From the NCBI GenBank assembly GCA_963678615.1, contig OY782947.1, positions 2,118,688-2,182,687 on the forward strand: DNA of 64,000 bases. Direction: 5' to 3'. The notes below the pieces were generated by a model. It was not told where the DNA came from. It worked only from the letters and a program-made list of their open reading frames with translations, and ran no database searches. Both the position numbers and the translations under genes were made by a program. Positions 39,704-42,290 of the stretch are shown here, in pieces. Each line of letters begins with the position of its first letter. The first letter of the stretch is position 1. The stretch comes from an uncultured Ponticaulis sp. Its GTDB lineage: Bacteria > Pseudomonadota > Alphaproteobacteria > Caulobacterales > Hyphomonadaceae.

Positions 39704-39854
39704 CGATAAACGATAATTGCATTTGATGTCGTCGTCAATCTCATTTGCAGCGACCCCGGATGACGCCGAAAACACGCAAACTAAAAATGGTTGATATGCA
39801 TTTGCCCCTCTCCTAATCCTGAGACATCAGAGGAAACCGGCACACCGCACTGAC

Positions 39855-40202
39855 ATGTTGTTCGCACTCACCATATCGCGCTTGCGCCTGTGTCTGGCTG
39901 TTTTGCTGACTGCTGTTTATCTGGCTGCGCCAATCGCAGAAGCACGCCATTCTGAGCACACAATCGAACATATCTGTGAAACGGCTATCACTGATGGTGC
40001 TGTAGCGAGTGATAAACTCGATCCACCAGCCGATCATACCCACCACACCCACAATTGTGGCAGTTGCCATATCCATCTTCTGAACGGAGACGCTGTGGTC
40101 GCCACAACTGGCCAACTTGTTTCCAGCTCACCCGGTCCACGACCTGCTGAAGCTGTTCTGAACCGCCCACCTGGGAACCCATACCGCCCTCCTCGCGGCT
40201 GA
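39855..40202 (+). CDS. DUF2946/CruR/CutF-like His-rich upstream ORF with CxxC and C-terminal RPP motifs
   Basis: Signal peptide (..APIAEA|R), 9 His, HNCGSCH, ends RPPGNPYRPPRG*, 65 nt before a TonB receptor. Confidence 0.75.
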   Translation: MLFALTISRLRLCLAVLLTAVYLAAPIAEARHSEHTIEHICETAITDGAVASDKLDPPADHTHHTHNCGSCHIHLLNGDAVVATTGQLVSSSPGPRPAEAVLNRPPGNPYRPPRG

Positions 40203-40260
40203 AACGGACTCCATCGGCACCTGCTCACCAGGCTGCCTTTCTCGTTTCAGTTTAAAGGGC
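40199..40260 (+). promoter_or_regulatory. Alternative RNA structures between the uORF stop and the receptor SD
   Basis: ctgaaacg(40199-206)/cgtttcag(40243-250); inner ggcacctg/cagg-c-tgcc; anti-SD gccttt(40235-240)/aagggc(40255-260). Confidence 0.55.
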
Positions 40261-40267
40261 AATCAAA

Positions 40268-42247
40268 ATGTCAAAGCAGTATTGGAGCAGCGCGGCTGCT
40301 CTCATCCTCTGTGCAATGGGACTTAACTCTATCTATGCGCAGGAAACACATCCACCGGGAGACGATCACGACGATGAAGCCGTGATGCAGAAAGTGGTCA
40401 TCTCAACCACACGATCTGGTCGGCTGGCTCAGGATGAACCAATGAAAGTCGAAGTCATCAACCGGGAGGAAATTGAAGAAAAAGCCATTATGCGTCCCGG
40501 CAATATCGCCACCATGGTGAATGAAACCGGCGGCATTCGGGTGCAGGTCACCTCTCCCGCGCTTGGCGCCGCAAATGTCCGGGTTCAGGGGCTGTTTGGC
40601 CGATACACTCAACTGCTCGCCGACGGTTTACCGCTTTATGGCGGACAGGCCTCTTCTCTCGGATTATTGCAGATTCCACCAACTGATTTGCGCAAGGTGG
40701 ACGTGATCAAAGGCAGCGCATCATCCCTGTACGGGGCGTCCGCTCTGGGTGGAGTGATCAACCTGCTCTCACGCCTGCCGGGCGATGAAGCCGAAGGCGA
40801 AGTTCTGTTCAATGTGACGTCCCGCAATGGTCAGGATATCACGGCCTATTATGCAACCCCGATCAACGACCAGCTTGGCGTCTCGATCACGGGCGGCGCG
40901 CACAAACAGGGTCTGGAAGACTTCGACAATGATGGCTGGATCGACATGCCGTCATATGAACGCTGGACGGCCCGGCCTCGCCTGTTCTGGGACAACCATA
41001 ATGGCGCGAGCATTTACGCTACGCTTGGCTTCATGACCGAAGACCGGACAGGCGGCACCAGAGATGGCGTCGACGCGCCAGATGGTTTGCCTTTCGTTCA
41101 GGCACAGGACACAACCCGCCTTGATGGTGGACTGATTGGTCAAAAAGACCTCAGCCATGCACTGACCGCACAGGTTCGGGCCTCGGCCATGGTGCAGGAT
41201 CACACCCATCAGTTCGGCAGTGTGATCGAAGATGATGAACATCAAAGTTATCTGTTCGAAACGTCTCTGACGGGCGCCTATGACGCGTCAAACTGGGTTC
41301 TGGGCCTCGCCTGGCAATCAGATCGCTATACGTCAGACACCTTTCCAGACTTTGACTACACCTATGATGTGCCGGGTGTGTTTGGGCAATATGATCGCGA
41401 CATTTCCGACGATCTGACCCTGTCACTCAGCGCGCGCCTTGATGACCATAACGTTTTTGGCACGCAATTCAGCCCGCGCGTTTCAGCGCTTTATCGGCCC
41501 GGAAACTGGACGATCAGAGGCTCTCTCGGCAAAGGCTTCTTCGCGCCAACGCCCTTTGTAGAAGAGATTGAAGATGCTGGCCTCTCTCGACTGGACCCGT
41601 TGTCAGGTCTGGTCGAAGAAACGGCGAAAACGGCATCACTGGATGTCGGCTATCAGACAGGAGGCATTGAGACCAATCTCACTTTGTTCGCCTCAGATGT
41701 CGAGCATGTCACCGAACTCGAAGCCTATGCGAGCAGTCCGGGCGGCGTTGAAGACCGCGTCCGCCTCGTCAACACAAGAGGCACAACCCGGATTCGCGGC
41801 GCAGAGCTCTTGCTTCGCTATGTGTGGAATGACTTCAAAATCACGGGAAGCTATCTCTTCATCGACTCAAGTGAGCCAAGTGTTGCCGGCTCACCGAACG
41901 ATGAAATTCCGCTGACACCAAAACACTCAGCCGGCATGGTCGCCATGTGGGAACGCCATGGTGAATTCCGGCTGGGTATGGAGATGTACTATACCGGCGA
42001 GCAGCGCATTGACGACAGCCCGTTCCGGACGCGCAGCGACAGTTTCCTCGATATTGGTCTGTTGGGGGAGATCACAATCGGCCCGGCGAGCTGGTTTATC
42101 AATGCCGAGAACCTGCTCGATGTTCGTCAGACCCGTGAAGAGTCGATTCTGCGCCCGATCCGCACGGCGAGCGGTCGGTGGACGACCGATATCTGGTCAC
42201 GCAATGACGGTTTCATCGTCAATGGCGGCGTGCGTCTGAAATTCTGA
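40268..42247 (+). CDS. TonB-dependent receptor (659 aa), probably metal-related
   Basis: Signal peptide, HPPGDDHDDE, KVVISTTR, VDVIKGSASSLYGASALGGVINL, C-terminal GGVRLKF. Confidence 0.93.
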   Translation: MSKQYWSSAAALILCAMGLNSIYAQETHPPGDDHDDEAVMQKVVISTTRSGRLAQDEPMKVEVINREEIEEKAIMRPGNIATMVNETGGIRVQVTSPALGAANVRVQGLFGRYTQLLADGLPLYGGQASSLGLLQIPPTDLRKVDVIKGSASSLYGASALGGVINLLSRLPGDEAEGEVLFNVTSRNGQDITAYYATPINDQLGVSITGGAHKQGLEDFDNDGWIDMPSYERWTARPRLFWDNHNGASIYATLGFMTEDRTGGTRDGVDAPDGLPFVQAQDTTRLDGGLIGQKDLSHALTAQVRASAMVQDHTHQFGSVIEDDEHQSYLFETSLTGAYDASNWVLGLAWQSDRYTSDTFPDFDYTYDVPGVFGQYDRDISDDLTLSLSARLDDHNVFGTQFSPRVSALYRPGNWTIRGSLGKGFFAPTPFVEEIEDAGLSRLDPLSGLVEETAKTASLDVGYQTGGIETNLTLFASDVEHVTELEAYASSPGGVEDRVRLVNTRGTTRIRGAELLLRYVWNDFKITGSYLFIDSSEPSVAGSPNDEIPLTPKHSAGMVAMWERHGEFRLGMEMYYTGEQRIDDSPFRTRSDSFLDIGLLGEITIGPASWFINAENLLDVRQTREESILRPIRTASGRWTTDIWSRNDGFIVNGGVRLKF

Positions 42248-42262
42248 AACCCGTAACAGGAT

Positions 42263-42287
42263 TGCCCGTCTGCTGAGCGGACGGGCA
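42263..42287. terminator. Hairpin between convergent genes, probable terminator
   Basis: tgcccgtctgc-tga-gcggacgggca. Confidence 0.6.
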
Positions 42288-42290
42288 GTT

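Follow-up and report, generated by a model that had tools for sequence, protein, structure and literature searches.

A predicted stop-codon-anchored hairpin and Shine-Dalgarno clamp between a DUF2946 leader gene and a TonB-dependent receptor gene in Ponticaulis and its relatives

We describe here the junction between two genes in a 64,000-nucleotide stretch from an uncultured Ponticaulis sp. (GenBank assembly GCA_963678615.1, contig OY782947.1, forward-strand positions 2,118,688 to 2,182,687; hereafter the window, in whose own numbering all coordinates are given). A small open reading frame (ORF) of the DUF2946 family, which we call the leader, ends 65 nucleotides (nt) ahead of the ATG, at 40268, of a gene for a TonB-dependent receptor, and the RNA between them is predicted to fold into a hairpin anchored on the stop codon of the leader and stacked on a short helix, the clamp, that holds the Shine-Dalgarno (SD) sequence of the receptor. 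DUF2946 proteins make up the CruR/CutF family of metal-sensing leader peptides (PMC9426467; PMC9973294). In Bordetella pertussis, CruR controls a TonB receptor (PMC9426467; PMC12992588): arrest of the ribosome on the C-terminal RAPP motif, with its two proline codons in the P and A sites (PMC12992588), prevents Rho-dependent termination ahead of bfrG; the arrest is relieved by copper (PMC9426467). In Rhodobacter capsulatus, a stem-loop shielding the SD of cutO is melted when copper makes the ribosome stall on CutF (PMC9973294; bioRxiv 10.1101/2025.02.05.636593). The two described members disagree, both on the device, Rho in one case and SD unmasking in the other, and on the metal, which relieves the stall in the first and causes it in the second. 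In the SecM-secA and MifM-yidC2 pairs, too, a helix that sequesters the downstream gene's SD is disrupted by a ribosome that has arrested close to the end of an upstream ORF. To our knowledge, DUF2946 leaders are the only case of post-transcriptional gene regulation by copper-type metals in bacteria.

Canonical DUF2946 peptides carry RAPP (or RGPP) about three residues before their end and 45 +/- 2 residues after a CxxC motif (PMC9426467). The leader of the window ends instead in RPP plus two residues, 39 residues after its CxxC, and sampled typical members of the class differ from it. With CruR (Bp2923) and its receptor BfrG/CrtA (PMC9426467; PMC12992588; PMC12914433), the locus shares a DUF2946 leader, a CxxC motif, an Arg-Pro-Pro-type end, the place of the leader as first gene before a TonB-dependent transporter gene, and, along the leader's 3' half, an excess of C over G (a C>G bubble). 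However, CruR has RAPP followed by three residues, 45 residues after CxxC, and a spacer of 162 nt, where we find RPP followed by two residues, 39 residues and 65 nt; CruR uses Rho-dependent termination, with an SD-masking helix undescribed, whereas here an SD clamp is conserved; and the receptor gene of CruR is followed by a PepSY_TM gene, which is absent here. With CutF-cutO (cutFOG), the locus shares a DUF2946 leader that has a Cys metal motif and, both putative here, an N-terminal signal for export and a proline-rich stalling motif at the C-terminus, together with a stem-loop between leader and next gene that shields the SD and is opened by a stalled ribosome, as is predicted here. CutF, in contrast, precedes a multicopper oxidase gene and carries CxxxC and PPP, while the present leader precedes a TonB receptor gene and reads CxxC-39-RPP[RK]x-stop; the anti-SD of CutF (CTTC) lies in the intergenic stem-loop, while here that role falls to the codons of the arrest motif or, in relatives, to the last codon and the stop; and the hairpin described here is anchored on the stop codon. 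The likeness to SecM-secA and MifM-yidC2 lies in the proposed unmasking of the next gene's SD by an arrested ribosome, although those leaders sense protein export, control the export machinery and are unrelated in sequence.

On sequence grounds, we read the window leader family as a variant branch of the DUF2946/CruR-CutF leaders, and the locus as a whole is most likely a compact variant of the CutF-cutO/SecM-secA logic set on a CruR-like receptor operon. No description of a stop-codon-anchored hairpin of this kind, or of the RPP[RK]x-stop branch, was found in the searchable literature.

The hairpin and the clamp in the window

RNAfold predicts an outer stem (40197-40208/40240-40252) that encloses an inner stem (40216-40223/40229-40237), with pair probabilities of 0.97-1.0. 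A preliminary description of this DNA had drawn the outer stem from ctgaaacg (40199-40206) and cgtttcag (40243-40250), with the stop codon inside, and the inner stem from ggcacctg and cagg-c-tgcc (40216-23/40229-37). These strands are complementary and are predicted to form one stem within the other, and the TGA at 40200-02, the AAGGG at 40255-59 and the TTT at 40251-53 stand in the sequence as that description said. It had also taken the SD to be free in this fold, and here the prediction is the opposite. Once the folded RNA includes at least 14 nt of upstream context, GCCCU (40186-90), in the last codons of the leader, takes up the SD core AGGGC (40256-60) with a pairing probability of 0.91-0.98, and the resulting clamp stacks on the hairpin across a 6/3-nt internal loop. 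In the free RNA, as in the free mRNA of CutF- and SecM-type systems, the downstream SD is thereby predicted to be paired: the unpaired probability of 40256-60 is 0.00-0.08, the probability of being paired at least 0.92.

The segment 40190-40275 folds at -25 kcal/mol (z = -2.5, with 3 of 200 shuffles as good). Taken alone, the hairpin of the window is only moderately better than chance, and its significance comes from conservation. The terminator scan called no intrinsic terminator at the hairpin, where the TTT at 40251-53 is not a terminator tail, and a search of Rfam 15 at E up to 10 gave no match at the hairpin and only two chance matches to small nucleolar RNAs elsewhere (E = 6-9).

The state in which a ribosome covers the end of the leader was modelled by holding 40170-40203, 40170-40206 or 40170-40212 single-stranded. 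Such masking removes hairpin pairs together with the pairs of the clamp and makes the SD more accessible, with unpaired probabilities of 0.8-0.9 for 40255-57 and of 0.3-0.45 for 40258-60.

Conservation of the device among related leaders

Of 251 genomes sampled from the same GTDB family, 108 matched a profile of the leader; 77 loci were extracted and reduced to 50 non-redundant homologous loci, to which the figures for the family refer unless another sample is named. Every one of their leaders ends in [YFL]RPP[RK]x-stop, with the stop codon exactly two codons after Pro-Pro. In an alignment of 17 leaders (A1), C68, C71, R111, P112 and P113 are the sole invariant residues besides Met1; the aligned leaders are otherwise about 30% identical to that of the window, and 16 of them share a CxxC-to-RPP distance of 39 residues. 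The spacers measure 39-81 nt, with a median of 67.

Between the stop-codon bases and the 3' part of the spacer, the mean pairing probability is 0.90, against 0.43 +/- 0.04 in dinucleotide shuffles, no set of which rose above 0.51, and 46 loci have the 5' end of the helix at -3..+1 nt relative to the first base of the stop. Covariation, to which the preliminary description had pointed as a check, is indeed present: the stop codon and its partner change together, as UGA/UCA in 25 loci, as UAG facing CUA in 7 and CUG in 2, and as UAA/UUA in 3, the remaining loci being partial. In a MAFFT alignment of the spacers that was not fitted to structure (A2), 14 pairs named by hand (stop helix and clamp) have 62% of their cells paired, whereas sliding the 3' partners by 1-3 columns leaves 32-47%, and the covariation score was matched by none of 500 shuffles; fitting to a covariance model (A3) brought a slight gain, to 66% paired cells. 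RNAalifold returned no structure from the plain MAFFT alignment of the 50 divergent spacers, because the 3' arms are misaligned in it, and the folds of single loci with their shuffle controls are more informative than the alignments. The homologous hairpins have a median length of 53 nt and a median energy of -19 kcal/mol, and five or more U in the 8 nt that follow were seen at a single locus. Their sequences differ between loci, while their position relative to the stop codon and the SD is kept. Among typical RAPP/RGPP DUF2946 loci sampled across the class, stop pairing exceeds 0.8 in 36%, as compared with 84% here (Mann-Whitney p = 3e-4), which indicates that the stop-anchored hairpin belongs to this short-spacer branch. 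The hairpin between the leader and receptor genes is real and conserved.

The clamp can be followed in the same way. The SD 6-mer pairs with the stretch made of the last eight leader codons, the stop and 4 nt with a mean probability of 0.70, against 0.33 +/- 0.03 in shuffles, and in each of the 50 loci its partners in the minimum free energy (MFE) fold are placed -1..-23 nt from the stop, within reach of a ribosome on the leader, as in CutF- and SecM-type systems. Two solutions are common, CGAGGA of the SD with UCCUCG of the Pro-Pro-Arg codons, and UUCAGG of the SD with CCUGAA of the last codon and the stop; the window has a third, AGGGC with GCCCU of the Arg-Pro codons. Different pairings hence reach one outcome in different lineages, which argues for selection on SD masking itself. 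Codon choice is biased at the same place: CCU is used for the first proline of RPP in 54% of loci, against 22% of proline codons elsewhere in those loci (p = 1e-6), and CGU for the arginine in 34%, against a background of 16% (p = 0.002), and these two wobble bases are the ones that face the A residues of GAGGA. With the leader end masked, the SD is freer in natural spacers (0.42) than in shuffles (0.35 +/- 0.02). The fold, its conservation and covariation, the positions of the SD partners and the codon bias are what the computation shows.

The gene that follows is an orthologue of the receptor in 20 of the 50 loci, and in 27 a TolC-like outer-membrane factor (L007, L008, L011-L013, L018, L019, L021 and L024 are among these), whose best NCBIfam match, below its cut-off, is the divalent-metal exporter subunit IhpA. 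The TolC-like factor is probably the first gene of a metal-efflux system of the resistance-nodulation-division (RND) type, and the TolC-linked copy of the leader often shares a genome with a receptor-linked one. A DUF2946 gene ahead of czrCBA in Caulobacter is a published precedent for such an arrangement of leader and exporter (PMC4176598). Leader, hairpin and SD score equally in the receptor-linked and exporter-linked classes.

Features of the leader-receptor locus in the window
Feature	Position	Strand	Basis
Leader ORF (uORF, upstream ORF), 115 amino acids, DUF2946 family	39855..40202	+	ORF list, Pfam PF11162, family alignment
C>G bubble, C up to 45%, G 22%, rut-like (resembling a Rho utilization site) as described for cruR	40020..40240	+	composition scan, conserved
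Codons of the CxxC motif (C68-G-S-C71), HTHHTH just before	40056..40067	+	invariant in 17 aligned homologues
Terminal R111-P112-P113-R114-G115 codons, presumed arrest motif, two codons before stop	40185..40199	+	conserved in 50/50 loci
Anti-SD strand GCCCU, Arg111 codon positions 2-3 and Pro112 codon	40186..40190	+	pairs with 40256-40260, also in MFE fold
Hairpin; 5' arm 40197-40208 holds stop codon 40200-02, 3' arm 40240-40252, inner stem-loop 40216-40237	40197..40252	+	RNAfold, homologous hairpins, covariation
Receptor SD region AAGGGC, core paired in free RNA	40255..40260	+	RNAfold pair probabilities
TonB-dependent receptor, 659 amino acids, His/Asp-rich mature N-terminus; last gene of unit	40268..42247	+	Pfam Plug + barrel

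A proposed switch and its competitors

We suggest that the hairpin and the clamp hide the SD of the receptor until a ribosome arrests on the RPP codons, and that this arrest turns receptor translation ON, a model that we favour with moderate confidence. In naked mRNA, the SD core AGGGC would be held by GCCCU of the RPPRG codons and the receptor's ribosome-binding site would be closed. By analogy with CruR, a ribosome arrested on R-P/P, between the two prolines, would place 40188-90 in its P site and would keep the anti-SD strand GCCCU in its E and P sites. Judging by ribosome footprints, mRNA enters some 11-13 nt downstream of the first P-site base; in the arrested ribosome this point would fall at 40199-40201, at the foot of the hairpin. 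Arrest would in this way free the SD, which lies 3 nt past the hairpin, with no need to melt the hairpin, and a second ribosome could initiate on the receptor. If the arrest were not long, termination would follow two codons later, the ribosome would leave, the clamp would re-form and the receptor would stay untranslated (OFF). The C-rich 3' half of the leader (C 45% against G 22% at 40200 in the window; C 38% and G 26% over the last 78 nt of the leaders of the family) may then permit Rho termination, and by analogy with cruR such polarity may reinforce the OFF state. The nascent leader, with a putative export signal and a His-rich CxxC 39 residues ahead of RPP, would let a metal set the length of the arrest; the metal could act as in CutF, where copper lengthens it, or as in CruR, where copper shortens it. 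The arrest at RPP, the sensing of metal and the direction of its effect are what we infer from the DUF2946 family. Whereas the preliminary description held the direction of regulation to be beyond determination, the model suggests a rule at the level of the RNA, by which a ribosome on RPP means an exposed SD and translation ON.

It is conceivable, though doubtful, that the hairpin is in addition a mechanical co-determinant of the arrest, and that, with one RNA device ahead of metal importer and exporter subunit alike, the polarity towards metal is encoded wholly in the paralogous nascent peptides. With a ribosome arrested on R-P/P, the hairpin starts 6 nt after the A-site codon, at the spacing of frameshift-stimulating structures, and so it could prolong the arrest. 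If this were true, the leader family would be a natural test bed for the contradiction between CruR and CutF.

Several points weigh against the proposal that arrest on RPP unmasks the receptor. The motif is RPP, with the arginine directly beside Pro-Pro, rather than canonical RAPP or RGPP, and it stands 39 rather than 45 residues from CxxC; arrest on it is putative. Any ribosome that reaches the stop opens the helix, and plain translational coupling would use the same structure. The same device stands ahead of an importer in 20 loci and of an exporter subunit in 27, and the physiological direction is unreadable from the RNA. The predicted opening is partial: in the masked RNA of the window, G40258-C40260 remain 55-70% paired with the start-codon region, and in the family masking raises the mean probability that the SD 6-mer is unpaired from about 0.25 to 0.42. 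CCUCC is at once the Pro-Pro codon pair and a generic anti-SD, and part of the complementarity comes with the peptide motif. The antisense strand of the segments, because it is G-rich, gives folds overall no less stable than those of the sense strand (mean -32.5 versus -29.8 kcal/mol), and thermodynamics alone hence gives no strand assignment. Finally, the loci are phylogenetically related, which overstates their independence and makes the z-scores obtained from shuffles upper bounds.

Attenuation of the CruR type might by itself account for the locus. The arrested ribosome would then shield a C-rich rut from Rho, the hairpin would be an RNA-polymerase pause site or a Rho-related element, and the pairing of the SD a by-product. 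A C>G bubble at 40020-40240, as reported for cruR (PMC9426467), is kept in 48 of the 50 loci, a TonB receptor lies downstream as in B. pertussis, and CCUCC is intrinsic to Pro-Pro codons, all of which would suit such a reading. We nonetheless consider it unlikely. The spacer has 65 nt and not 162, while "long intergenic distances" are given as a trait of cruR loci; pairing of the SD with the leader end lies about 12 standard deviations above shuffles, itself one of those upper bounds; the wobble positions that face the SD are biased; and the lineages that pair the SD with the last codon and the stop arrive at the same masking, which is unlike a by-product. Attenuation is moreover compatible with the clamp, in that Rho polarity on untranslated receptor mRNA could follow closure of the SD.

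We give somewhat less credence still to constitutive translational coupling, or to an element for mRNA stability, with neither a regulated arrest nor metal sensing. The clamp opens no less well under a terminating ribosome, modelled by masking to 40212, than under a stalled one, arrest at RPP is presumed, and hairpins with a median of -19 kcal/mol are stable. R-P-P, CxxC and their spacing of 39 residues are invariant, however, in a peptide that is otherwise about 30% identical, and this pattern is the signature of the experimentally studied CruR and CutF sensors; nor does simple coupling need a stop codon fixed at two codons after Pro-Pro.

A model built on the preliminary description, in which the outer stem leaves the SD free and a paused ribosome turns the receptor OFF by letting gccuuu (gccttt in the DNA, 40235-40) pair with aagggc (40255-60) and hide the SD, appears very improbable to us. 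The two 6-mers are complementary, as that description said, and with the 5' arm masked they pair with a probability of 0.07-0.10, so that in folds with and without a masked leader end the alternative is at most a minor conformer. Its probability is 0.00 in the free RNA, where the SD is in any case not free next to the outer stem, and its pairing is negligible because gcc belongs to the stable inner stem, which would have to break, the fold lying 2.3 kcal/mol above the masked MFE. Generalised to all 50 loci in the masked state, pairing of the SD with the interior of the spacer is depleted in natural sequences to half of that in shuffled spacers (0.21 versus 0.41 +/- 0.04). Since such pairing is minor in the window and depleted in the family, we take the switch to be between a clamped SD and a clamp strand held inside the ribosome. 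What stands of the earlier model is that a ribosome near the terminal RPPR would shift the RNA equilibrium, for the structure is tied to a ribosome at the leader end, with the helix foot at the stop in 46 of 50 loci and the SD-holding strands under the footprint of a ribosome on RPP; what falls is that it would do so through a second fold within the spacer. That the element might be an intrinsic terminator or attenuator, a known riboswitch, a dispersed palindromic repeat or a chance inverted repeat strikes us as scarcely credible, for although the stem-loop is followed by TTT and its single-sequence z-score is only -2.5, no terminator is called, a U-rich tail follows 1 of 50 homologous hairpins, Rfam gives no match there even at E up to 10, and hairpins of varying sequence keep a constant place with respect to stop codon and SD.

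The two genes, their surroundings and their significance

The leader matches Pfam PF11162 (DUF2946) over residues 12-109 with 26.6 bits, above the gathering cut-off of 23.7 (E = 1.1e-5), a weak match that was missed by a whole-genome search with PF11162 at E <= 1e-6. Its N-terminus, as read from the translation, resembles a signal peptide, with a basic n-region and the hydrophobic core LCLAVLLTAVYLAAP followed by AEA, and this region is kept across alignment A1. The CGSC motif at residues 68-71 is His-rich, with the context HDHHxHxCGxCHxH in the 17 aligned homologues, and the C-terminus reads ...NRPPGNPYRPPRG-stop. Seven codons ahead of the terminal RPP there is a second Arg-Pro-Pro-Gly (R104-P-P-G, 40164-40175), and several receptor-class leaders in alignment A1 have RPPG, RPPE or RPPD at the equivalent position. 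PPG is a classical EF-P-dependent pause motif, and R104-P-P-G and the terminal RPP may therefore be two consecutive pause sites in the leader. At the other end of the gene, ATG 39855 is the first start codon of the open frame, and it has no SD at a normal distance, the sole GAGGA of the region 39829-39857 lying 21 nt ahead of it. The promoter scan called no sigma-70-like promoter on the + strand for the leader, and an operator-like inverted repeat was looked for upstream of it and not found. The start of the leader may be leaderless or SD-independent.

The receptor has generic matches to TonB-dependent receptors in NCBIfam, all below their cut-offs, and its best match in the PDB is Cir, which covers residues 43-262 (the plug and the start of the barrel). 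Its mature N-terminus (40334-40384, residues about 23-39), ahead of the TonB-box region, holds the His/Asp-rich HPPGDDHDDE, and orthologues carry longer HDH/HEH runs at the equivalent place; this suggests a metal-binding extension. No internal promoter for the receptor appeared in the scan for promoters and terminators. The receptor gene is the last of its unit, because the next gene, for a transglutaminase-like protein, is convergent; the G+C-rich inverted repeat tgcccgtc...gacgggca (42262-42289) between the two is probably a bidirectional terminator.

With the receptor as query, mainly gammaproteobacterial orthologues with a different leader were located. Those of Pseudoalteromonas and Psychrosphaera (L034, L036-L043, L047, L049, L050) have 56-60% identity, and the leader ahead of them is Cys-rich and ends in [LYF]RPPIF[TA][SAH]-stop, with about 200 nt from leader to the start of the receptor match, making another RPP-type branch with a long spacer. 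At one locus (L006, in genome G003) with an intact leader and hairpin, a stop after 143 codons breaks the receptor orthologue, which continues in another ORF and is either a pseudogene or an assembly error.

The window family joins a receptor operon of the CruR kind with an SD mask of the CutF kind, in an unusually small format of 65 nt that is easy to mutate, and the comparative data mark the bases that are expected to matter, namely the stop codon, the bases it pairs with, the Arg-Pro-Pro wobble bases and the SD. From the strong selection on RPP[RK]x-stop, set at a constant distance of 39 residues from CxxC, a further arrest sequence is to be expected. Because importer and exporter paralogues share one RNA design, experiments on them offer a direct way to ask how polarity is set in a family whose two described members contradict each other. 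For annotation, "hypothetical" ORFs of 115 amino acids of this type, together with the spacers that follow them, would be better read as regulatory leaders.

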